Virus genome (UHGV): UHGV-0048736
Origin: a virus
Strand: one strand, 5' to 3'
DNA: 10,511 nucleotides
Position 1 is the stretch's first letter, and the number at the start of each line of letters is the position of its first letter. The notes under the pieces were generated by a model that saw only the letters and a list, made by a program, of their open reading frames with translations, was not told the DNA's origin and did not search any database. This document shows, piece by piece, positions 1 through 10,461 of the stretch. The position numbers and the translations under genes were made by a program.

Positions 1-175
1 TGTCAGTTATCATCTTCGGTTACGGTTATCGGCAGAACGCCCTGCCGCTGACAAGAGCTTATTTGCCTGACCAATTTACTCCACATGATAGATAACTATC
101 ATTTATATCATTTAGTTAATTAGTCTTTATTTTTCATTATGTTGCAAATAACAAGCCTGTCAAAAACAGTGATAT

Positions 176-1896: not shown

Positions 1897-1948
1897 AAAA
1901 ACCGCGAGGTCGCCGCCCCGTAACGGGTCCATATGCCGGAAAGGACCC
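1897..1948 (-). other. Second cosN copy, inverted orientation, collinear with the Nu1-like gene
   Basis: Positions 1897-1933 are the exact reverse complement of 1025-1061 (37/37). cosN GGGCGGCGACCT is on the minus strand at 1907-1918, followed on the minus strand by CGCTATTTATGA as in lambda and then divergent sequence. GGGTCC...GGACCC hairpin conserved at 1926-1948 with a different loop. Confidence 0.75.
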
Positions 1949-1950
1949 AT

Positions 1951-1974
1951 AAAAAAAAGCCGGATTTCTCCGGC
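1951..1974 (-). terminator. Rho-independent terminator after the 137-aa gene
   Basis: GCCGGA-tttc-TCCGGC hairpin (1959-1974) preceded on the plus strand by A8 (1951-1958), giving hairpin plus U-run on the minus transcript; 7 nt past the stop at 1981. Confidence 0.7.
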
Positions 1975-1980
1975 CTTGTC

Positions 1981-2394
1981 TCAGATGGTTTTCAGTATGC
2001 GATCGATGTCGCCGTCATCGCCCTGGTTTCTGCCATCGTATGCCATGCCAGCTGATACGGCTTGCGGGCTGTGCATGTCCATAAAGTTTTCAAAGGCTGC
2101 GGTAAGTTCCGGCGCAACCTTCGGACGTTCCTGCTCTATGGTCATGCTAAGGATGCTTTTAGCCGTACCAACATCGATACAAGGCACGTTTGCCATTGCA
2201 CGTAACAGCGGCTGATAGTCGCCAGATTCATCAAGCGCCATAATCGCATCAGCGCGCGGCTTGTCCTGCTCTTCCAGTTTGTTAAGTTGATATATGGCCT
2301 CGTAGGTTGATAACCCTCTGTCAGCCATTGCCCGCGCTTCGGCTTTAAATTTACTCGCCAGCGGTAGCGTCATGATGCTTTCATTCGTTGCCAT
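1981..2394 (-). CDS. Hypothetical head-module protein, 137 aa
   Basis: ORF with strong Shine-Dalgarno (AGGGGGAACG before ATG), 12 nt after the D-like gene; acidic C-terminal region. Function not assignable from sequence. Confidence 0.6.
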   Translation of the reverse strand: MATNESIMTLPLASKFKAEARAMADRGLSTYEAIYQLNKLEEQDKPRADAIMALDESGDYQPLLRAMANVPCIDVGTAKSILSMTIEQERPKVAPELTAAFENFMDMHSPQAVSAGMAYDGRNQGDDGDIDRILKTI

Positions 2395-2406: not shown

Positions 2407-2742
2407 TTATCGGGCCAGCGGCTGAACGGATACGCCAGAACCCGCAAAGGCGGCGCATTTTTTCGCATCGGTGTCGACGCTCTCAGGCCAGTTAACGGCG
2501 GCAATATTGAATATCCCCGTCTTGTAACACTGTGCTGATTTCTGCTTTGACGTGTCCACAGGATACGAAGTCAGATAAACAGCCTTGCCAGATTCCTGAC
2601 CATCCCACGGCTTAAACTCGCCATTGTCCGCCAGCATCAGCGGGGTAAATTCCTGAATAACGCCAGCATCAGCGGCAAAATGTACCAGCGTCGTGGCGAC
2701 CTGCTGACTGCCTGCAAATAACTCAATGTATGGAGTGTCCAT
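2407..2742 (-). CDS. Head decoration protein, lambda gpD-like
   Basis: 111 aa (gpD is 110 aa). TPLMLADNGEFKPWDG versus recalled gpD TPLMLDTSSRKLVAWDG; CYKTGIF..NWPE...AKKCAAFAG versus FYKSGTF..LWPE...TKKRTAFAG. GGGGG Shine-Dalgarno. Confidence 0.85.
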   Translation of the reverse strand: MDTPYIELFAGSQQVATTLVHFAADAGVIQEFTPLMLADNGEFKPWDGQESGKAVYLTSYPVDTSKQKSAQCYKTGIFNIAAVNWPESVDTDAKKCAAFAGSGVSVQPLAR

Positions 2743-2753
2743 AGAATCCCCCG

Positions 2754-3809
2754 TTAAGCAATTTTGACGGTAACAAATTTGCGAATATCTGCCGGAACCG
2801 GCTGCGGTGCGCTGTGCGTCTGCACGTACTCAATCGCCGGATCGCCGTCCTCAATCCAGTTTTTCGGGTAAAACATGTTTTGCGTTGCGCCCGTTCTTAC
2901 TGCGTCCTGATCCATAATCGCACCATAGGCCACCAGCCCTTTATTGTTGGTGTTGCCCAGGACAAGCAAATCAGGCTCAAGGAAATATTTTTCTGTGCCG
3001 TCGCTGTCGGCGTATTTGCCGGAATAGACGATAAGGGCAATATCGCCCAGATAGCCTTTAAAGCTCACCACTTCGCCCAGGTTTTTACAGGCCAGCTCTA
3101 CGGCGGACTCTGAACCACGGGAAAGATCGTACAGCTCACGGAATTTTTTAAAGCTGCGTAACGTGCGCCATACCTCAGCGCCCATAATCATGACGTTTGC
3201 GGGGCAACCAGCCTGATCAGCATAAAGCTCGATGTCATAGATTGGATCGTGTGTTTCCTTATCTGCCTCTGACCACTTTTTACCCGGTCCCTGTCTGGCG
3301 ATGTTTTTACTTGGGATCTTCCAGTCTATTTCATAGCGTTCTATGCCTTCGCCCTCAATGATGTTTTTTCCGGTCGTTATCGCATTCACCGCCAGCCATT
3401 CCACGCGCGCTTTAATGGCGTTTATCTGGCGGCGCATGTTGCCAGTAATCAGGCGCATACGGCGGTAGGTAGGGTCGTTAAGCTGTGCTGGATCTTCTCC
3501 AGCCATGCGCATGATGGTTTTTGTTGGATCGATTTCGTGCTTTGGCTTCATGTAGCCAGGTTTGATTGTGCTGGTTTCGTACCCTTTATCGCGCTGAACC
3601 TGGCTACCCACCATAGGCGAACAAAACGCCGACATGGTGACTTCTTCAATGTCCAGGGTATCCAGCATGATGTTTTGCGTGTTGAATGTCGCCACGTTCG
3701 GGAAAAACAGCGTAGTAAACAGAGGGCTGAATTTAAAATCCGCAATATCCCCGCGATTCAGGTACATGAAAAGCTGGTTAGTGTTAAGTGCCGTTGCTTT
3801 GCCTGCCAT
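2754..3809 (-). CDS. Major capsid protein, lambda gpE-like
   Basis: 351 aa (gpE is 341 aa). FKFSPLFTTLFFP versus gpE FKFDPLFLRLFF; KPGYMKPKHEI versus TPGYVKPKHEV; DPTYRRMRLI versus DPAYRRRRII; YPKNWIEDGDPA versus YPKNWVTTGDPA; C-terminal FVTVKIA versus FVSVQLA. GGGGGTG Shine-Dalgarno. Confidence 0.9.
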   Translation of the reverse strand: MAGKATALNTNQLFMYLNRGDIADFKFSPLFTTLFFPNVATFNTQNIMLDTLDIEEVTMSAFCSPMVGSQVQRDKGYETSTIKPGYMKPKHEIDPTKTIMRMAGEDPAQLNDPTYRRMRLITGNMRRQINAIKARVEWLAVNAITTGKNIIEGEGIERYEIDWKIPSKNIARQGPGKKWSEADKETHDPIYDIELYADQAGCPANVMIMGAEVWRTLRSFKKFRELYDLSRGSESAVELACKNLGEVVSFKGYLGDIALIVYSGKYADSDGTEKYFLEPDLLVLGNTNNKGLVAYGAIMDQDAVRTGATQNMFYPKNWIEDGDPAIEYVQTHSAPQPVPADIRKFVTVKIA

Positions 3810-4015
3810 TATTCACCCCCATAATTTTTATGCATCCCAAGCGCCGCAAGTAAATAAGAGCGTACAAGTGAACCTATCGACGGCTCCGGCGTCATCAGCG
3901 GATCCAGTCCAGCCGCTACGCCAGCCTCATAGTTTTTTTTGTGGCGCTGCTTGAGCACCTCCACGATTTCGGGGCTTATGTACACCGAAACACCACCTTT
4001 TTTCTCTTCAGCCAT
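3809..4015 (-). CDS. Hypothetical small protein, 68 aa, translationally coupled to the capsid gene
   Basis: Its TAA stop overlaps the gpE-like ATG by one nucleotide (TAATG); first gene of the head operon. Confidence 0.55.
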   Translation of the reverse strand: MAEEKKGGVSVYISPEIVEVLKQRHKKNYEAGVAAGLDPLMTPEPSIGSLVRSYLLAALGMHKNYGGE

Positions 4016-4050
4016 AGTAAGAAATTCCTCTTCGACTTAAAAAATCATAA

Positions 4051-4139
4051 CTGGATGTTCATCCAGCTCTGATTATAATCAGGATTGCATTTTGTGCAAT
4101 GATATTGAGTTGTGTTGCAAATTATGAAATGATGATCCC
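4051..4139 (-). promoter_or_regulatory. Putative promoter/operator region of the head operon, with clustered palindromes
   Basis: CTGGATG-tt-CATCCAG (4051-4066); perfect 14-bp palindrome CTGATTATAATCAG (4069-4082) containing TATAAT; ATTGCA-N5-TGCAAT (4084-4100); ATGATC-cc-GATCAT (about 4126-4139). All lie 35-125 bp upstream of the operon's first start codon. Confidence 0.4.
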
Positions 4140-4217: not shown

Positions 4218-4392
4218 ATCTGCCTGCAAAGATGTCGAACAAAAATTAACCACAACCATCATCTTTTTTGCATCAAAACAATTAAAAACAATAAATTACG
4301 CTCATGATGATGATGACGATAAAATCACAAAAATGCGCTTTTTTCCGCGCCTCCCGCCCCGTGTTCAGGCCCACCCCGCCAGGAGGACCCGT

Positions 4393-4415
4393 AAAAAAGC
4401 CGGATTGCTCCGGCT
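4393..4415 (-). terminator. Rho-independent terminator after ssb
   Basis: AGCCGGA-ttgc-TCCGGCT hairpin preceded on the plus strand by A6 (4393-4398); 16 nt past the ssb stop. Near-identical to the 1951-1974 terminator. Confidence 0.7.
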
Positions 4416-4430
4416 TCTGTCACTCGTCGC

Positions 4431-4853
4431 TTAAAACGGTATGTTATCCCCGTACGGATCATCATTCCCCGCCTGTTGTTTTGCCCTGTTCAGCGCGTCA
4501 GTAGCCTGGCCCTGTTGACCTTTTTTGCCGCCCAGTCGCGCCGTTCGCGCACTGATTACACTGTCTGCGATAACCTGCCAGCCCTGCCGCGTTTCTCCGT
4601 TCTGCCCAGTCCACTGGCTGATCTGCATGTTACCCGCCACGCTCAGGAGTTCACCCTTGCGGTGCCTTTCCAGTGCTTCGGCCTGTCTGCCAAATGCCAG
4701 GACGGATAACCACATCGTCGCCGTTCCGTCATCTGCCTGGCTGCACGGAAGGGGGACCGCCATACGCGCCAGCGTCATCGGTGTGCCCTTGCTGGTCTGT
4801 TTTACCTGCGGGTCGTCCACCAGCCGCCCGTAAGCGGCTATCTGTGCTGTCAT
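4431..4853 (-). CDS. ssb: Single-stranded DNA-binding protein
   Basis: 140 aa. OB-fold pattern alignable to E. coli SSB (TMWLSVLAFGRQAEALERHRKGELLSVAGNMQISQWTGQNGETR versus [44 protein letters not shown]); Gly/Gln-rich linker; C-terminal tail DDPYGDNIPF like SSB DFDDDIPF. ATGA start/stop overlap with the upstream 85-aa ORF. Confidence 0.8.
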   Translation of the reverse strand: MTAQIAAYGRLVDDPQVKQTSKGTPMTLARMAVPLPCSQADDGTATMWLSVLAFGRQAEALERHRKGELLSVAGNMQISQWTGQNGETRQGWQVIADSVISARTARLGGKKGQQGQATDALNRAKQQAGNDDPYGDNIPF

Positions 4854-5395: not shown

Positions 5396-7144
5396 TTATA
5401 AAAACGCGTCGCAATCGTCTGTTGTTATTGCGTTAGTCTGCGTTACTCCTTTAACTTTCCGCGTAATATATTCATGTCCGTAAACTTTCGCGGCTGGCTT
5501 CATAGCCTTGCCAAAGTCATTTACGTTTAGCGGTTTGCTCCTGCCTGCGTACGCCATAAACGCCAGATAGACGCGGTAAAGGCTGTTTCTGGTCGTGTAC
5601 TTCACTGAATCGCCACCGCCGCCCATCATCAGGCCGCGTGCTTCCTCCAGAAAATTCAGGAACTGGCAAAACTCAATAACCGGATCCGTCTGTTGCTTTA
5701 TTGCCAGTGCTTCATCACCGTCACGCTGTTCAATGAGTAAAGCCCGTGCCTTTTCAGGGTCGGCAAAGTTCGCCAGCAAGCGGCGGATAATGACAGGGAT
5801 TTCAGCCGCGATCTTTTCCGGTAGCTCCCTGTCTTTTTCTGCCTCGCTTACGATGTTATCGAACCGGAATATCACCCGACGACGTGCCACACCTCCGGCC
5901 CGTTCGGTGAATATCATCGGATTGTTATTGGTTGCCAGCACCACCGCCCTGATTACCGCCGTAAAACGCTTTTCATATTTCGGGTTAATTTCCACGGGGT
6001 CGCCGCCCGTGATTTTCTTGATGCCCGTTCCTTCGCCTGTATATTTCGGCTGGTCTGCCAGGACGATAAGACGACTCCCGACAACCTGCGCACGCCCACC
6101 AGCATCATCAAGCGATGTCATTTCAGCGCTTACCGTGTTTTGTTTCCCTGCCAGAAGGCTGGCTATGTGTGTGAATGTACTTTTACCGCTCCCGCCGTCT
6201 CCGGTGGCCTCAATAAACATCTGCCAGTCGTACCGGTTCGCCATAATCATGTACAGCGCGGCACATATACGCATCATCTTGCGCGGGTCTTTTCCGGCTG
6301 CGTGCTCAAGCCATTTATGAAAGTTTGGCGCGTTATCGCGGATGTTCTCCCCGGGTGCTGGTGGCGTGTACTCAATGCCGTTGTGCGTGGTGATCCAGTT
6401 CTCCGGCGTGTGCGGGGAAAATTCCCCCGTTTTCAGGTCAAGCGCACCATTGGCGAACGGCAGCAAATCGCCGGACGGCTCGCCCATTGGTTCGGCAATA
6501 ACTTTTAACGCTTCCACGGCGTTATTGATTACGCGCTTGCTGAAAGTGGCCCTGTGCTCTGAATAGATCGCCACCATTTCGCGGCTCAGCTCCATTGTGC
6601 TGACCGGACACCATACCCCGCCGCGCCATACGTGAACGATTTCACTTTCAGGATGCACACAAACGCCATCAAAGCGCTCGGCAAGCAGCTGCGCACGCTC
6701 ACTGTCTGCCATTTGTGCCAGTTGCGTATTTTTCTGCTCCGGCATGGTAAGCCCTGCGGCAATATTTTCACGCTCAGCATTCAGATAGCGCCGCCAGTTT
6801 TCACACTTCTGGACGTGCATTCCTTCGGGGTAAAAATTTGCGTCCTGAATATCTGCCGCCGCCAGCTTCTGACCAATCTTTTTGGTCTCCACCAAATCCA
6901 GTTCTCCGGCCTGGTACAGCCTTACGCGCTTTTTCCCATCCGGAACAATTTTCAGTGCATCAAGTTCGGCAAGCTGATTTGGCCCAAGCCACACAGGCGG
7001 CACATTATCGCCGGATGCGGGGCCATCCTGCTCCTGCCATTGTTTCGCGTGCGACCAGGCATCACTACCCGCGAAAATAATTACCTCTGTGTCTTTGTGT
7101 TTTATTCCGCGTGGCTGTTTTTTTACGTTCGGTGCCAGTTTCAT
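5396..7144 (-). CDS. Replication protein: primase / SF3 (D5- or P4-alpha-type) helicase
   Basis: 582 aa. Walker A EATGDGGSGKSTF, downstream Walker B-like hydrophobic stretch (RLIVLADQP) and C-terminal region typical of P4-family primase/helicase; N-terminal roughly 250 aa is primase-like. ATGA overlap with the upstream 99-aa gene; CAGGGG Shine-Dalgarno. Confidence 0.9.
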   Translation of the reverse strand: MKLAPNVKKQPRGIKHKDTEVIIFAGSDAWSHAKQWQEQDGPASGDNVPPVWLGPNQLAELDALKIVPDGKKRVRLYQAGELDLVETKKIGQKLAAADIQDANFYPEGMHVQKCENWRRYLNAERENIAAGLTMPEQKNTQLAQMADSERAQLLAERFDGVCVHPESEIVHVWRGGVWCPVSTMELSREMVAIYSEHRATFSKRVINNAVEALKVIAEPMGEPSGDLLPFANGALDLKTGEFSPHTPENWITTHNGIEYTPPAPGENIRDNAPNFHKWLEHAAGKDPRKMMRICAALYMIMANRYDWQMFIEATGDGGSGKSTFTHIASLLAGKQNTVSAEMTSLDDAGGRAQVVGSRLIVLADQPKYTGEGTGIKKITGGDPVEINPKYEKRFTAVIRAVVLATNNNPMIFTERAGGVARRRVIFRFDNIVSEAEKDRELPEKIAAEIPVIIRRLLANFADPEKARALLIEQRDGDEALAIKQQTDPVIEFCQFLNFLEEARGLMMGGGGDSVKYTTRNSLYRVYLAFMAYAGRSKPLNVNDFGKAMKPAAKVYGHEYITRKVKGVTQTNAITTDDCDAFL

Positions 7145-7445: not shown

Positions 7446-7673
7446 TTATTCTCCGGTGTGCTGCGCTTTATTATTCTCGTGAATTGCCATCACTGTATTT
7501 AATTCATTAATAACAGGCGTTAATAGCGTACGCACGGCAGAAAACATCATTGAATCAGATTCATCGCCACTTTCCGGCACATCAATTAACTTAAGTAGTA
7601 ATGCGTCCATTTCCTTTGCGCGGATTAATGCGTTTTCAGAATGAACAAGAACATCAAAGGGTATTTTATGCAT
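7446..7673 (-). CDS. Hypothetical protein, 75 aa
   Basis: ORF with CAGGGGGTGAG Shine-Dalgarno; acidic small protein; 5-nt gap to the next gene. Confidence 0.55.
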   Translation of the reverse strand: MHKIPFDVLVHSENALIRAKEMDALLLKLIDVPESGDESDSMMFSAVRTLLTPVINELNTVMAIHENNKAQHTGE

Positions 7674-7869
7674 GACTCACCCCCTGGCGAATACGGGCAG
7701 CGAATACCATCACGCAGCCATCAGGAGATTGCTGACGCGCTTCCTGTTCGCTGGTGGCCTCAATGGTAATCACGCGCGGTTGTGCAGTGCTCAGGGTGAT
7801 AAAACGCCAGATGTATTTATTCAGGTTGTGCGAGTCCCGCCCTTGCGGGTGTGTGGTATGATTTCTCAT
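7666..7869 (-). CDS. Hypothetical small protein, 67 aa, first gene of the leftward early operon (possibly Icd-like; weak)
   Basis: Taken from the internal ATG at 7869 (GAGG Shine-Dalgarno 6-9 nt upstream) of a spurious 305-aa ORF. The position upstream of the primase mirrors the P4 left operon. The YIWRF...EQEARQ pattern is reminiscent of Icd-like proteins, but that is from memory only. Confidence 0.45.
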   Translation of the reverse strand: MRNHTTHPQGRDSHNLNKYIWRFITLSTAQPRVITIEATSEQEARQQSPDGCVMVFAARIRQGVSHA

Positions 7870-7965
7870 AGCTACCTCGATACTTTCGCTATCGTTGGTG
7901 GTTAGAAGCCCGGTTAGTGTTAGCGCACTGCCGGGTTTCGTCGTTTCTGCACCTTGCGCCAACAA

Positions 7966-8020
7966 GGTGTTGAACACCAATTTAAACCCAGGTGTTAAAC
8001 ACGTCAAGTGTTGAACACTT
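7966..8020. promoter_or_regulatory. Three operator-like palindromes (GTGTT-N-AACAC) in the divergent control region
   Basis: GGTGTT-G-AACACC (7966-7978), GTGTT-A-AACAC (7992-8002), AAGTGTT-G-AACACTT (8006-8020). A possible sigma70 promoter (TTGAAC -35 inside site 3, CATACT -10) faces the plus-strand regulator gene. Confidence 0.6.
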
Positions 8021-8068
8021 ATTTTTTTTCCTGCATACTGCATTTGTTTTTTATGAGGGGTACACCAC

Positions 8069-8248
8069 ATGGCGACAAAAGCAGTAAACGCAAAATCACA
8101 AACCGTTGCGGCAAGGGTTCCGCATGAAGTTATGAACAATGTTGAGGCGGTAAAAATGCCTGGCGAAAGTACGGGGCAATTTGTTACTGCGGCATTAAAA
8201 CGAGAAGTTGAATATCGCCAGCGGCGCAAGGCCAAAGAACCAGAGTAA
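8069..8248 (+). CDS. Small putative DNA-binding regulator, 59 aa (possibly ribbon-helix-helix)
   Basis: Not in the ORF track because it is under 60 aa. ATG at 8069 with GAGGGG Shine-Dalgarno 8 nt upstream; stop TAA at 8246-8248. Translation MATKAVNAKSQTVAARVPHEVMNNVEAVKMPGESTGQFVTAALKREVEYRQRRKAKEPE has a strand-helix-helix-like pattern and a basic tail. Sits immediately downstream of the operator triplet. Confidence 0.6.
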   Translation: MATKAVNAKSQTVAARVPHEVMNNVEAVKMPGESTGQFVTAALKREVEYRQRRKAKEPE

Positions 8249-8290
8249 TCACCATCAGCGCCGTGGTGTAAGGTATTACGGCGCATTGCT

Positions 8291-8479
8291 ATGCAGGACA
8301 ACACAATGACCGATAAAGAATTGACCAAAACATTATCACCGGCACGGAAAAGACGGCGCAGAAAGATAGAGCATGAATCAGAAAGATTCGCGCCATGTGC
8401 TTTTGCCCTTGAGCAATTCCTTAAAGAGTACAGGGAAAAGCGCTCATTGCAGGTATGGCAACGAACTGAACCAGACTGA
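8291..8479 (+). CDS. Hypothetical small protein (62 aa, or 57 aa from the ATG at 8306)
   Basis: ORF downstream of the small regulator gene and upstream of the plus-strand terminator. An AGGA Shine-Dalgarno-like motif favours the 8306 start. Arg-rich, no recognisable motif. Confidence 0.3.
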   Translation: MQDNTMTDKELTKTLSPARKRRRRKIEHESERFAPCAFALEQFLKEYREKRSLQVWQRTEPD

Positions 8480-8546
8480 TTGCATTGCCCACCAGCCGCA
8501 AATGTGGCATTGTTGGTGATGCGTTCAAGTTTAGTGTGTATCCATT

Positions 8547-8573
8547 GGCGACCGCCCCCGGTCGCCTTTGTTT
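8547..8573 (+). terminator. Rho-independent terminator of the rightward regulatory transcript
   Basis: GGCGACC-gccccc-GGTCGCC hairpin (8547-8566) followed by TTTGTTTT. Confidence 0.65.
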
Positions 8574-8593
8574 TATATGTCATATGCTCCCCT

Positions 8594-8803
8594 TTACGCT
8601 GCCTTACCTGAATTAATGCGATCCCGGCTTTTAACCCATTCCATAACCTCGGACAGCAGCCAACCTACAGAACGCCCACCAAGATTACGGCGAGACGGAA
8701 AGCTCCCTTTTTTCTCCAGTTCGTAGCGTGTAGTGCGACACACTCCAGTTAACTTACGACATTCATCCTCACGGATTACGCGATCTTCATTTATTTCACG
8801 CAT
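8594..8803 (-). CDS. alpA: AlpA-family phage transcriptional regulator
   Basis: 69 aa from the internal ATG at 8803 (the 98-aa ORF in the track starts at a GTG inside AT-rich promoter-like sequence). C-terminal half ...RRNLGGRSVGWLLSEVMEWVKSR fits the AlpA-family pattern as I recall it. Located next to the integrase as in P4-like elements and PICIs. Confidence 0.7.
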   Translation of the reverse strand: MREINEDRVIREDECRKLTGVCRTTRYELEKKGSFPSRRNLGGRSVGWLLSEVMEWVKSRDRINSGKAA

Positions 8804-9222: not shown

Positions 9223-10461
9223 TCAAGAATTTTGGGGGTAAATTCGCGGGGTCATAACAACGATTTTTTCATCATTGTTCTGGAGAAGCTCGAGACGGTC
9301 TACCCATAGATTAAGAGCATCACGTTTTGCATCAAGGTAGCGGGAGTGGTTATAGACTCGTTGCATCCCTGGCATCTGGTGGGCTGTAAGCTGCTCGACA
9401 ATATGCGGATCCACGCCTAAATCGTTCAGTATGGTTGTAAATGTGTGCCGGATATCGTGTAACGTCCAGGGGGCTTGATTAATTCGTCTGTGCGCTGTTC
9501 TTCCGTACTCTGCTACCGAAGATTGTCCTTTCAGTTCACCAAGCAATAAGCCTGTGTGTCTGTTCTGCTCCACCAGTTGCGTGACGAACGGCAAAATGCT
9601 TTCCGGTATTGGCCTGAATATGGCGACCTTCGTTTTGCTGTGCTCCTTCGGTACTGTCCAGAGCATTTCTTTAAAATCCCACTCCTGCACCTCAGAGCGC
9701 CTTAGCTCAGTGGTACGGCATCCAAAAACAATCAGGAGGCGAATTAGGGCGCTGTAGTATGGCGGGAATATTTTGTCATCCAGGGCGCGGAGTAATTCCC
9801 CAAGCTCCTTATTTGTTAGTACGCGCTCGCTCACTTCTGCTTTTTTTCCCACATCACCGACAACCATATCATCAAGAACGTTGCTGATTGCGTATCGTCG
9901 TTTTCGGCAGTACTTAAGCGCCTGTTTGCATACCTGTAGCAAAAATCCGGCAGATACTGGGCTTCGCTTTGCCATCTGGTCAAAACATGCCAACCAGTGC
10001 CGTAGCTCGCATTTTTCCAACGGCAAAGCGCCAATCTGGCTGATTATGTGTTTATTGATCCGGCTTTTCAGTGATTCGTAGTCAGTGCGCTTTTCCTTTG
10101 CATACGATTCAAGCCAGTAAGTGAGCGCTTCCTTAACTGTCACGGGGGCTAACGCATCCTGTACAGCACGATTAAGCTCATAGCGCGGATTTTTCCCCTC
10201 AGCCAGCCAGGCGCGACACTGTGCTGCTTTTTCCCTGGCTGCTTTCAGGCTCAGATCGGGATAATTGCCCAGTCTCAGACGTTCCGGTGATACCTGCCTA
10301 CCAGTTCCGGCCCTGTAAGTGAAATACCAGGTTAACAGGCCGCTGGTGGAATGTCTTACGCTAAGATTGCCACCGTCATTAAAAAAGGCGTTTTTTGTGG
10401 TTGGTGATCCGCTTAATTTTCGTAAAAGAGTGTCGCTAAGTCTATGAATTGCGCTGCTCAT
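9223..10461 (-). CDS. int: Tyrosine site-specific integrase, P4-type
   Basis: 412 aa. C-terminal catalytic region with HDIRHT (His-x-x-Arg) and a downstream tyrosine (RVYNHSRYL); N-terminal region typical of the P4-integrase arm-binding domain. Start codon 25 nt from the right att repeat. Confidence 0.93.
   Translation of the reverse strand: MSSAIHRLSDTLLRKLSGSPTTKNAFFNDGGNLSVRHSTSGLLTWYFTYRAGTGRQVSPERLRLGNYPDLSLKAAREKAAQCRAWLAEGKNPRYELNRAVQDALAPVTVKEALTYWLESYAKEKRTDYESLKSRINKHIISQIGALPLEKCELRHWLACFDQMAKRSPVSAGFLLQVCKQALKYCRKRRYAISNVLDDMVVGDVGKKAEVSERVLTNKELGELLRALDDKIFPPYYSALIRLLIVFGCRTTELRRSEVQEWDFKEMLWTVPKEHSKTKVAIFRPIPESILPFVTQLVEQNRHTGLLLGELKGQSSVAEYGRTAHRRINQAPWTLHDIRHTFTTILNDLGVDPHIVEQLTAHQMPGMQRVYNHSRYLDAKRDALNLWVDRLELLQNNDEKIVVMTPRIYPQNS

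Follow-up and report, generated by a model that had tools for sequence, protein, structure and literature searches.

The Capsid Module of the Classical Gram-Negative PICI of Escherichia coli IHE3034 and Its Putative Nu3-Like Scaffold Gene

The head genes of the DNA analysed here (the window, 10,511 nucleotides deposited as UHGV virus genome UHGV-0048736) are the capsid, or "morphogenesis", module of a classical Gram-negative PICI, the published IHE3034 island of E. coli. The presence of capsid and decoration genes in such PICIs is already known; one detail is apparently unreported. The gene that follows them encodes a protein of 137 aa which, by its sequence, is Nu3-like and scaffold-derived, and which is referred to below as mini-Nu3; the study that described the island (PMC6092414) does not identify this gene as scaffold-like. 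Single deletions within the module, made in a sister island, gave no phenotype. With a cut-down Nu3 scaffold as the third gene, the question shifts away from that of a "stray capsid gene". We tentatively propose, with a probability of about 0.4, that the satellite could build its own shell from island E, scaffold and D on the portal, protease and terminase of the helper.

Identity and Ends of the Island

The window is 100% identical to the island located between clpS and cspD of E. coli IHE3034, described in 2018 as a classical Gram-negative PICI (Fillol-Salom et al., PMC6092414). A preliminary description of the window had missed that the element was already known. That study also included a marked version of the IHE3034 island in its tests, which was transferred from its native strain at no more than 40 transductants per ml (PMC6092414). 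When the window was set against the unoccupied clpS-cspD site of K-12, the left copy of the att core fell inside the window and the right copy approximately 120 nt past its end, which gives an island length of 10,543 bp.

85..106, no strand: att core, left copy, imperfect 22-mer ATGATAGATAACTATCATTTAT (comparison with the empty K-12 clpS-cspD site)

A 15-mer present at window positions 174 and 10485 was also considered as att and was ruled out, as the empty site that it predicts is nonexistent.

The gene content is that of a PICI. A tyrosine integrase (Phage_integrase and Arm-DNA-bind_3 domains) is encoded at one end, att repeats flank the element at a specific chromosomal site, and an AlpA-type regulator (Phage_AlpA, E = 3.8e-16) and a primase module with D5_N/DUF5906/Pox_D5 domains are present. 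All annotated genes of the island run on the minus strand, bar one small YlcI/YnfO-family gene. The island encodes a packaging-redirection protein, a Nu1-like TerS, and has no tail, lysis, portal or large-terminase genes.

Layout of the Head Operon

Four minus-strand ORFs of the head operon were confirmed, encoding the 68-aa, E-like (351 aa), D-like (111 aa) and 137-aa proteins, and the RefSeq annotation has the identical four genes. They are listed here with the neighbouring signals and packaging functions.

4030..4135, minus strand: conserved region upstream of the head operon, predicted to control it (alignment of five islands)
3809..4015, minus strand: 68-aa leader of an orphan family, translationally coupled to E via TAATG (ORF and overlap)
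2754..3809, minus strand: E-like major capsid protein, 351 aa, HK97 fold, satellite-specific lineage (PF03864 match)
2407..2742, minus strand: D-like head decoration protein, 111 aa (PF02924 match)
1981..2394, minus strand: mini-Nu3, stand-alone scaffold-like protein, 137 aa (homology to phage 21-type C/Nu3)
1956..1977, minus strand: terminator-like hairpin, a 9-bp stem followed by a T run, directly 3' of the 137-aa gene
1907..1918, minus strand: cosN cohesive-end sequence GGGCGGCGACCT, with a flank of about 25 nt near-identical to that at the left end of lambda and of phage 21
1231..1773, minus strand: Nu1-like small terminase, 180 aa, downstream of cos (PF07471, E = 2.3e-23)

The stop codon of the 68-aa gene and the start codon of E overlap as TAATG ('ggtgaaTAATGgcagg'). 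The ORFs and the RefSeq genes bear out the order given in the preliminary description, in which the 68-aa gene is joined by TAATG to the E-like gene and followed by the D-like and 137-aa genes; the span that it assigned to the operon (2407-4015) left out one member, the 137-aa gene (1981-2394). It was also right that E precedes D, the reverse of the lambda order (C/Nu3-D-E-FI); the related islands that were examined all had the same arrangement. The ORFs, Pfam matches and RefSeq annotation of the window include no portal, protease or large terminase, in agreement with the preliminary description as to the first two, and the island must therefore borrow both portal and protease.

The block at 4030..4135 probably acts as the control region of the head operon, judging from the signals within it: a sigma-70-like TTCATA-18-TATCAT, the palindromes ATTGCA-N5-TGCAAT and TGATTATAATCA, and the RBS AAGAGGA. 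A promoter-like match lies at 4128-4099. Across the five islands, including VG35A2, the capsid gene of which has approximately 66% nt identity, conservation is higher in this block than in the coding sequence.

The 68-aa leader protein matched solely phrog_3255 (unknown function) and no Pfam or NCBIfam family. Its own family is tiny, with 16 representatives retrieved by an exhaustive profile search of 1.84 billion proteins, and structure comparison gave no fold match and hence no assignable fold. The dN/dS of the gene was 0.10-0.76, and 0.26-0.48 in pairs diverged enough. Salmonella islands encode homologs of 77-79 aa just upstream of E, without the overlap. Two candidate identities were rejected: lambda gpW, likewise of 68 aa, did not align, and the beta-alpha-alpha fold match to solved ribbon-helix-helix proteins, sought for a regulator of this class, was not found.

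Beyond the hairpin and cosN, the small terminase aligns with lambda Nu1 along almost its whole length at 35% identity and is the island's own packaging-specificity subunit.

The Capsid and Decoration Proteins

The E-like protein matched Pfam Phage_cap_E (PF03864) over positions 16-328 of 329 (E = 5.8e-50) and is 43% identical to lambda E. It also matched PDB entry 3BQW ("putative capsid protein of prophage") with E = 2.8e-229; the sequence of this entry is near-identical as judged from the score alone, and the structure serves as an HK97-type representative. The full-length family match and the fold together place island E among the Phage_cap_E capsid proteins of HK97 fold. The D-like protein matched HDPD (PF02924, E = 1.3e-17) and is 36% identical to lambda D. 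Its closest solved relative is SHP of phage 21 (1TD0/1TD3, E = 1.5e-13), lambda gpD (1C5E, E = 3.5e-9) ranking behind, and both the Pfam match and the solved structures assign it to the lambda gpD/phage 21 SHP family.

Identity of E is 53-71% among the PICI lineages versus 41-46% to phage E, and none of the 50,697 phage records contained an E more than 46% identical to that of the island. For D, identity to phage homologs is 29-45%. With these values, PICI E and D form their own satellite-specific lineage, old and diverged from the phage homologs. The preliminary description had allowed for a recent capture, with E and D indistinguishable from those of a helper and missing from related islands; the identity ceiling in the phage records speaks against such an event, and related islands retain the genes. 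The E protein of the helper of EcCICFT073, a PICI closely related to the IHE3034 island, is 100% identical to phage 21 E, and identities between the island and this proven helper amount to 45% for E, 43% for D and 37% for the scaffold tail.

A Stand-Alone Scaffold-Like Protein

The 137-aa protein is composed of two Tri-box-type repeats (approximately aa 5-40 and 48-84) and a Nu3-type C-terminal tail (approximately aa 95-137). It matched phrog_53, "head maturation protease", at positions 494-567 of 583 (E = 9e-9), and its diverged VG35A2 homolog matched the same family independently. In tblastn searches only the 3' end of C/Nu3 genes in phage 21-type phages was matched. The alignment with phage 21 gp6 residues 115-192 has 37% identity over 83 residues (E = 4e-11), and residues 416-493 of the C protein of the EcCICFT073 helper also align, with 37% identity. 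The Tri-box motif, I[LM]xxxEAxGxE...PGMTVExARxILAA, was modelled from phage repeats only, and residues 49-82 of the island protein scored above all 1000 shuffles; the N-terminal repeat is tied to Nu3 only transitively, through the VG35A2 homolog (z = 8.7, 0/2000 shuffles). In the tail, TAAFENFMDMHSPQAV...DGDID of the island aligns with TAMFEHFMANHSPAAV...DGDAD of phage 21. This tail is common with phage 21-type proteins and is not shared by lambda Nu3, and direct BLAST of the 137-aa protein against lambda C/Nu3 gave no match. The AF2 model is all-helical, and its low confidence (pLDDT 46) precluded a fold search. Shorter variants occur naturally, with 93 aa (one repeat) and approximately 79 aa; the 79-aa gene after D in Salmonella is weakly similar to mini-Nu3 (E ~0.07), which is suggestive.

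On these alignments we regard the protein as Nu3-like and scaffold-derived, and we do not call it a Nu3 orthologue because its gene stands alone 3' of D in an island that has no protease gene. The claim that the operon has no scaffold was accordingly mistaken, since homology links the 137-aa protein to the scaffold portion at the C-terminal end of phage 21-type C/Nu3, and a guess made at the same time, that this protein might be scaffold-like, proved correct. The assembly of E on a helper scaffold and portal, as then presumed, stands only as regards the portal, the borrowing of which is supported; the premise of a helper scaffold falls with the presence of mini-Nu3. A faint resemblance of the N-terminus to gpFI had been mentioned as well. 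BLASTP gave a best E of 0.46 over 13 residues, the quoted segment LPLASKFKAEARAMADRGL falls in the first, diverged Nu3-type repeat, and a gpFI identity was rejected.

Distribution and Selection

The full-length module is present at no less than 91% nt identity in 598 of the 5,426 complete E. coli genomes, about one in nine, among them O157:H7, O145:H28, Nissle and ExPEC strains, and its synteny extends to Salmonella. The search of species-representative genomes for related loci found none. A capsid gene is carried by 21 of 29 reference Gram-negative PICIs.

In each of five islands that integrated independently the four genes are intact, and every one of them has a dN/dS below 1 (0.09-0.18 for E and 0.05-0.32 for D). 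The module is under purifying selection and has been retained across differing integrases, attachment sites, replicons and packaging genes. Type-A islands, like that of IHE3034, reside mostly at chromosomal sites and not inside helpers. In type-B islands E and D are present and the Nu3-like gene is absent, which means that not every member of the lineage has the scaffold; their third gene was considered as a Nu3-like candidate and turned out to encode an excisionase-like HTH protein. One type-B island, L008, is located inside a prophage capsid gene. Records of ~20-kb "phages" with an E-like gene (vB_EcoM-569R10) were considered as possible satellites and rejected, since what they contain is an incomplete myovirus prophage in which C, D and E follow the normal order.

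Possible Functions of the Module

In lambda, the capsid protein and the scaffold alone form, by self-assembly, icosahedral shells of native type, which gpD then decorates at 420 sites (PMC9295703). By this standard the island carries exactly the minimal set for a lambda-type shell: E, mini-Nu3 and D. In the proposed pathway, induction by the helper would be followed by co-assembly of E and mini-Nu3 into a shell around the helper portal. The helper C protease, the C-terminal targeting tail of which is homologous to that of mini-Nu3, would mature the shell, and the island DNA would be cut at cos and packaged by island TerS with helper TerL. Island D would then lock the expanded, filled shell, to which helper tails would attach. 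The island would thus be a "shell-only" partial capsid-former, between the classical PICIs and the capsid-forming PICIs.

In favour of this proposal, the four genes are intact and under purifying selection, the module is retained in E. coli and Salmonella, E, D and the scaffold tail have all diverged from their counterparts in the helper, and cos and TerS lie directly downstream of the module. To our knowledge, the only role of a decoration protein in established lambda biology is to stabilise expanded, DNA-filled shells, and the conservation of a cognate D argues that shells containing island E get filled. Against it, deletion of c1499 (capsid) or c1500 (decoration) in EcCICFT073 left both the transfer by the resident helper and the interference with lambda unchanged, and all DNA packaged with lambda as the helper was phage-sized (PMC6092414). 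Classical E. coli PICIs have been described as packaged in large capsids, probably as concatemers, and four island units make up 98% of the phage 21 genome, so helper heads fit the island well without an island capsid. The transitive link of the N-terminal repeat to Nu3, the low-confidence AF2 model and the type-B islands with E and D but no Nu3-like gene also count against it. If the satellite does build its own shell, transport of island concatemers in helper heads would provide a second route, and laboratory transfer assays would then not depend on the module. Conserved genes without such a phenotype have a precedent: cpmA and cpmB are conserved but not needed for SaPI transfer, and the C-terminal capsid-binding motif of CpmB is common to the helper scaffold (PMC6893505). 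A broader and rather doubtful version holds that classical enterobacterial PICIs generally are partial capsid-formers, in which E, D and mini-Nu3, with the 68-aa protein as an accessory, form a shell on the helper portal, and the number of scaffold repeats (two, or one in the variants, versus three in phage 21-type helpers) sets the shell geometry. Such an effect would show only when a phage 21-type helper is used, and it would have escaped notice because the only published size test for this island family used lambda.

The number of repeats also bears on capsid-size redirection, in which island E, the shortened scaffold or both would force small, one-genome shells that exclude the helper genome. 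Mini-Nu3 has the C-terminal tail of the helper scaffold yet two repeats instead of three, in parallel with CpmB of SaPI1, its natural variants are shorter still, and Ccm of SaPIbov5 is a precedent for a capsid-protein homolog that alters capsid size. A 10.5 kb monomer would fill approximately 88% of a crudely scaled T=3 capacity, and the lambda used in the size test has a Nu3 tail that differs from the phage 21 type. Nevertheless, we consider such redirection unlikely. The crude T=4 capacity would be filled to 57% by a monomer and to 114% by a dimer, which does not match the T=4 solution usual among satellites, while a tetramer fills the phage 21 head at 98%. The earlier suggestion that a differing E determines capsid size gained no support, as EcCICFT073 yielded phage-sized DNA with lambda and the capsid and decoration deletions were neutral for transfer (PMC6092414). 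The same deletions weigh against a defensive role, a still slimmer prospect in our judgement, in which island E, scaffold and D would enter mixed assemblies with capsid components of the helper or an invading lambdoid phage, or sequester them, and so lower phage yield. Portal-less decoy shells and trapping of the protease through the Nu3 tail may be proposed as examples. Classical PICIs do interfere strongly with helpers, lambda E and scaffold alone yield portal-less shells (PMC9295703), and the mini-Nu3 tail mimics the targeting tail of the helper protease. However, when the post-ori genes of EcCICFT073 were expressed singly, only c1503 (RppA) inhibited lambda, and its deletion fully restored plaquing (PMC6739421), whereas deletion of c1499 or c1500 gave no relief of interference (PMC6092414). 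Neither would a poison or decoy need a conserved cognate D.

Captured late genes have also been proposed to provide a backup copy (PMC10111431), and the module could in principle replace helper capsid functions that are interrupted, as by helper-embedded PICIs in prophage E, defective or repressed. HE-PICIs target E more often than any other gene, and among the late genes of Gram-negative PICIs those for capsid proteins are the most common (PMC10111431); in addition, the position of L008 within a prophage capsid gene is in line with this idea. We find it improbable for the present module, given that the IHE3034 island and most type-A islands integrate in the chromosome outside helpers, that 41-46% identity makes a simple drop-in replacement unlikely, and that PICI E and D are an old, separate lineage not captured from current helpers. 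The absence of a deletion phenotype (PMC6092414) and a gene order scrambled relative to phages would suit a functionless remnant of a once more complete head module. This reading, already disfavoured, is scarcely credible: the ORFs are intact, dN/dS is well below 1 in all lineages, and synteny, translational coupling and the upstream control region are conserved across E. coli and Salmonella. If no particles are built from the three structural proteins, the strong purifying selection on them needs another explanation.

Comparison with Known Systems

EcCICFT073, the model classical Gram-negative PICI (c1499 capsid, c1500 head decoration), has the same four genes in the same order, which are 95% (E), 99% (D), 99% (137-aa protein) and 68% (68-aa protein) identical to those of the IHE3034 island. 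In place of the RppA of EcCICFT073 the IHE3034 island encodes a full Nu1-like TerS, and its primase takes the position filled by a RepA helicase in some relatives.

The Tri-box repeats of the 137-aa protein are common to phage 21 gp5/gp6 and lambda C/Nu3, the C-terminal tail only to phage 21, and there are two repeats in the island protein and three in phage 21. The scaffold of both phages is nested in the protease gene upstream of D/E, whereas the 137-aa gene stands alone downstream of D and E. Nu3 is reportedly intrinsically disordered, according to the title of the 2011 article by Medina et al. on gpNu3, and the predicted helical, low-confidence structure of the 137-aa protein fits this title-level description. 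Lambda phage-like particles, in which E and Nu3 form shells with gpD, contain the same three protein families, which are sufficient in lambda; those particles are an engineered expression system.

The resemblance to staphylococcal islands is a functional analogy only. Like CpmB of SaPI1, mini-Nu3 is small, predicted to be helical and equipped with the C-terminal end of the helper scaffold, and island E, like Ccm of SaPIbov5, is homologous to the capsid protein of the helper but diverged from it. A sequence relationship is not expected, and the PICI module has the capsid, decoration and scaffold homologs together. Unlike in the CpmB and Ccm systems, no size change was observed in the EcCICFT073 family with lambda as the helper.

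Capsid-forming PICIs (cf-PICIs, e.g., EcCIEDL933) also encode their own major capsid protein, and their int, alpA and rep modules can be common with classical PICIs. In addition they encode a portal, protease, head-tail connectors, HNH and large terminase; by its ORFs, Pfam matches and RefSeq annotation the IHE3034 island has none of these and does not belong to the cf-PICIs. The capsid genes of PICIs and cf-PICIs separate almost perfectly in a published phylogeny (PMC10085698). If E, mini-Nu3 and D build particles, classical and capsid-forming PICIs would form a continuum in how much of the virion the satellite makes itself, and a partial capsid-former would stand, in evolutionary terms, between satellites stealing complete capsids and cf-PICIs, which steal tails only.

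Identity and layout of the island

At 100% identity, the window matches the chromosome of E. coli IHE3034, in which it lies between clpS and cspD, and the element is the "IHE3034" island that was cat-marked and counted among the TerS-encoding Gram-negative phage-inducible chromosomal islands (PICIs) by Fillol-Salom et al. 2018 (PMC6092414). Set against the empty site in K-12, the island measures 10,543 bp and has an imperfect 22-nt att core; the unit spans window position 85 to position 14649 of the IHE3034 locus (L001), so that its integrase-side end falls approximately 120 nt beyond the window end. With one exception, a small YlcI/YnfO-family gene, all annotated genes are encoded on the minus strand. 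Their order from the right end is integrase, AlpA, primase, SSB, head operon, terminator hairpin, cos, TerS and a 93-aa gene.

Annotated features of the window
9223-10461, minus: tyrosine integrase
8594-8803, minus: AlpA regulator
between AlpA and primase in gene order, minus except the YlcI/YnfO-family gene: small genes and a DUF4222 gene
5396-7144, minus: D5-type primase
4431-4853, minus: SSB
3809-4015, minus: 68-aa gene, sharing one base with the E-like gene (TAATG overlap)
2754-3809, minus: E-like capsid gene, 351 aa (PF03864, E = 5.8e-50; 43% identity to lambda E with just two gaps)
2407-2742, minus: D-like decoration gene, 111 aa (PF02924, E = 1.3e-17; 36% identity to lambda D)
1981-2394, minus: 137-aa gene, starting 12 nt past D
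1907-1918, minus: cosN, GGGCGGCGACCT
1231-1773, minus: Nu1-like small terminase (TerS)
693-974, minus: conserved 93-aa gene

Among the mechanically called ORFs is one of 305 aa at 7666-8583 (minus) that runs across several small annotated genes (Icd-like, YlcI/YnfO and a fragment of a BRO-N pseudogene); it is absent from the RefSeq annotation and probably spurious. In the IHE3034 flank (L001:1-3649), clpA beside the island is annotated as frameshifted and is followed by a type I-F CRISPR array and cas1f.

The head operon

The preliminary description read an operon of four genes, with E before D and TAATG coupling, and the ORFs, the overlap and the PF03864 and PF02924 matches bear this out; its view that portal and protease are missing also agrees with the ORFs, Pfam matches and RefSeq annotation of the window, in which neither these nor a large terminase was found. 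The proposed span of 2407-4015, however, misses the 137-aa gene, and the claim that there is no scaffold does not hold, as the product of that gene is Nu3-derived. Each of the four genes has a plausible RBS, and a terminator-like hairpin follows the 137-aa gene.

The 68-aa protein matched only one uncharacterised PHROG, with no Pfam or NCBIfam family and no phage match, and an exhaustive profile search of 1.84 billion proteins yielded 16 representatives of its family. Its gene overlaps the E start in E. coli, and the Salmonella homolog (77-79 aa) lies just upstream of E. Judged by dN/dS (0.26-0.48 in informative pairs; a single pair of near-identical sequences reaches 0.76), the protein is constrained.

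Upstream of the 68-aa gene, region 4030-4135 (minus) is conserved beyond the level of coding sequence across five islands and contains the palindromes ATTGCA-N5-TGCAAT and TGATTATAATCA; it probably acts as a regulated promoter for late expression or as an operator. Between ssb and the operon, the islands of O157:H7 (L005:10639-10911) and CFT073 (L007:1-208) have a gene for a PerC-family regulator, which is missing from the window island. The last 26 residues of one PerC-like protein (P0061) are the C-terminus of the 68-aa protein, and it probably arose through fusion or frameshift.

The 137-aa protein as a cut-down, Nu3-like protein

The match of the 137-aa protein to PHROG 53 ("head maturation protease") is confined to profile positions 494-567 of 583 (E = 9e-9), and its tblastn matches are limited to the 3' ends of C/Nu3 genes in phage 21-type phages, the same phages that give the best matches to the island E. 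Residues 49-131 align with residues 115-192 of phage 21 gp6, a Nu3 homolog (37% identity, E = 4e-11). In phage 21 gp6 there are three "Tri boxes" in tandem (depositor annotation "function unknown"), and in lambda Nu3 there is one. On a model built from the four phage repeats only, residues 49-82 scored above 1000 of 1000 shuffles; the N-terminal 45 residues were not detected directly (424/1000 shuffles) and are colinear with unit 1 of the diverged homolog in the VG35A2 island (z = 8.7, 0/2000 shuffles). This unit fits the phage model (0/1000 shuffles) and is internally repeated; the homolog as a whole is 30% identical to the window protein and separately matches PHROG 53 positions 500-577. Taken together, the phage-model, VG35A2 and gp6 matches identify the protein, at the level of sequence, as two repeats of the Tri type followed by a tail like that of phage 21, which makes it a cut-down, Nu3-like putative scaffold. 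The earlier guess of a scaffold-like protein was thus correct, as the matches fall in the Nu3-type scaffold part of C/Nu3, while the faint resemblance of its N-terminus to gpFI has to be abandoned: similarity to gpFI is absent, and the quoted segment falls in the first repeat.

The AF2 model is all-helical with low confidence (pLDDT 46). The title of a 2011 paper by Medina et al. reportedly describes gpNu3 as disordered, and the model may be regarded as compatible with such disorder, without proving it. Some homologs are labelled "phage head-tail connector protein" by NCBI, a label suspected to go back to "head-tail preconnector", as phage 21 gp5/gp6 were formerly called. Three homologs of 93 aa (P0025, P0028 and P0029) are natural in-frame deletion variants without residues 21-64, between repeated 'RAMA' motifs, and retain one repeat and the tail.

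Distribution and lineage of the module

Of 5,426 complete E. coli genomes, 598 carry the whole module at 91% nucleotide identity or more; O157:H7, O145:H28 and Nissle are among them. The order 68 aa, E, D, ~140 aa is kept across islands differing in integrase, attachment site, replicon (primase or RepA helicase) and packaging gene (TerS or Rpp-like). The published sister island EcCICFT073 has the same module, and, judging by position, c1501, where the published tetA marker sits, is probably its 137-aa gene. Salmonella islands encode the 68-aa homolog, E, D and then a 79-aa protein weakly similar to the 137-aa protein; in one of them, cargo genes for a HicA/HicB toxin-antitoxin pair lie downstream of the packaging genes (L012:12653-13388). 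A second, "type-B" module (L008:6376-8162, L009:6376-8162, L010:6212-8159) combines a 346-aa E and a 113-aa D with an HTH protein that resembles excisionases (phrog_2790), the 68-aa and Nu3-like genes being absent from all three loci. The L009 island occupies the clpS-cspD site, as the window island does, and L008 carries a TIR-domain gene as cargo.

The E proteins of PICIs are 53-71% identical among types and genera versus 41-46% to phage E, phage E proteins (one myovirus included) being 54-62% identical to one another; D shows the same pattern. No phage E above 46% identity to the island E was found in 50,697 phage records. The preliminary description named, as what would refute it, E and D equal to a helper's own genes and their lack in related islands; identity of at most 46% for E and retention of the module point the other way.

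The cos site

The cosN lies between the head-operon terminator and terS, just upstream of the latter, so that a linear packaged genome would begin with terS and finish with the head operon. Its flanks extend over ~1880-1925, with ~25 nt near-identical to lambda and phage 21. A degenerate second terminator hairpin and cos-like sequence, ACGGGGCGGGAGGCGCGG, occurs at ~4235-4425 (minus) between ssb and the 68-aa gene, giving imperfect direct repeats of ~85 nt on both sides of the module. The ~170-nt repeat-bearing segment is common to the Nissle island and absent from the O157, CFT073 and VG35A2 islands.

Possible functions of the module

A relic is contradicted by selection: all four genes are intact in the five islands compared, with dN/dS below 1 in each (E 0.09-0.18; D 0.05-0.32; 68-aa gene 0.10-0.76; 137-aa gene 0.07-0.63). 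Interference with the phage, or decoy shells, is weakened as an explanation, since deletion of c1499 (capsid) or c1500 (decoration) of EcCICFT073 left lambda interference unchanged (PMC6092414) and, when each gene downstream of ori was expressed singly, c1503 (RppA) was the sole lambda inhibitor, its deletion fully restoring plaquing (Fillol-Salom 2019, PMC6739421). A backup copy for helper-embedded islands is a rival suggested by the L008 island, which sits within a prophage capsid gene. Redirection to small capsids is another. Only phage-sized DNA was packaged from EcCICFT073 with lambda (PMC6092414), and the published size tests of this family used lambda as the phage, though the helper head is phage 21-type. 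A crude capacity estimate fits a T=3 monomer and does not fit T=4.

Lambda capsid protein needs no partner other than the scaffold to build native icosahedral shells, to which gpD is added afterwards (PMC9295703). The island, without any portal-vertex component, thus has just the genes of the minimal shell set. In lambda biology, a decoration protein is not known to be of use except on shells that have expanded and been filled, and the conservation of D alongside E argues that shells of island E would be filled with DNA. The minimal set and the conserved D lead us to favour, tentatively (probability about 0.4), a satellite-built shell: island E, scaffold and D would form it, the helper would supply portal, protease, TerL and tails, and island cos and TerS would direct packaging.

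Comparison with known systems

The element has been published before, and so have its capsid and decoration genes, c1499 and c1500 having been noted and singly deleted with no change in transfer by the resident helper (PMC6092414). According to Mageeney et al. 2023 (PMC10111431), 21 of the 29 Gram-negative PICIs taken as reference have a capsid gene, which is dispensable for transfer. In de Sousa et al. 2023 (PMC10085698), "capsid morphogenesis" counts among the core components of PICIs and is "thought to modify" the capsids that they hijack. The crystal structure 3BQW, which has been used to represent the HK97 fold and as a model for molecular replacement, is essentially the island capsid protein. 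A link between a Gram-negative PICI gene and a scaffold was not found in the PICI literature examined, and a search pairing Nu3 with PICI returned unrelated papers only. What is new and useful is the recognition of the module as a complete, minimal kit for a shell, through which its function becomes directly testable.

The order in lambda and phage 21 is C/Nu3-D-E-FI, and E before D, the mirror image of the phage arrangement, is a genuine difference. The helper prophage of EcCICFT073 at icd has a phage 21-type head module with phage 21 gene lengths (L007:39933-47551); in this module, E matches that of phage 21 at 100% identity and D at 98%, and the C protein is as long as its phage 21 counterpart. 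Satellite E, D and scaffold tail are 45%, 43% and 37% identical to this helper, and the nearest solved relative of island D is phage 21 SHP rather than lambda gpD. Four island units amount to 42,172 bp (98% of the phage 21 genome, 87% of lambda), which would agree with the packaging of concatemers into heads of full size. The missing deletion phenotype does not contradict a satellite-built shell, because the island can also travel as such concatemers in helper heads and because cpmA and cpmB of SaPIs are likewise conserved, yet dispensable for transfer (PMC6893505).
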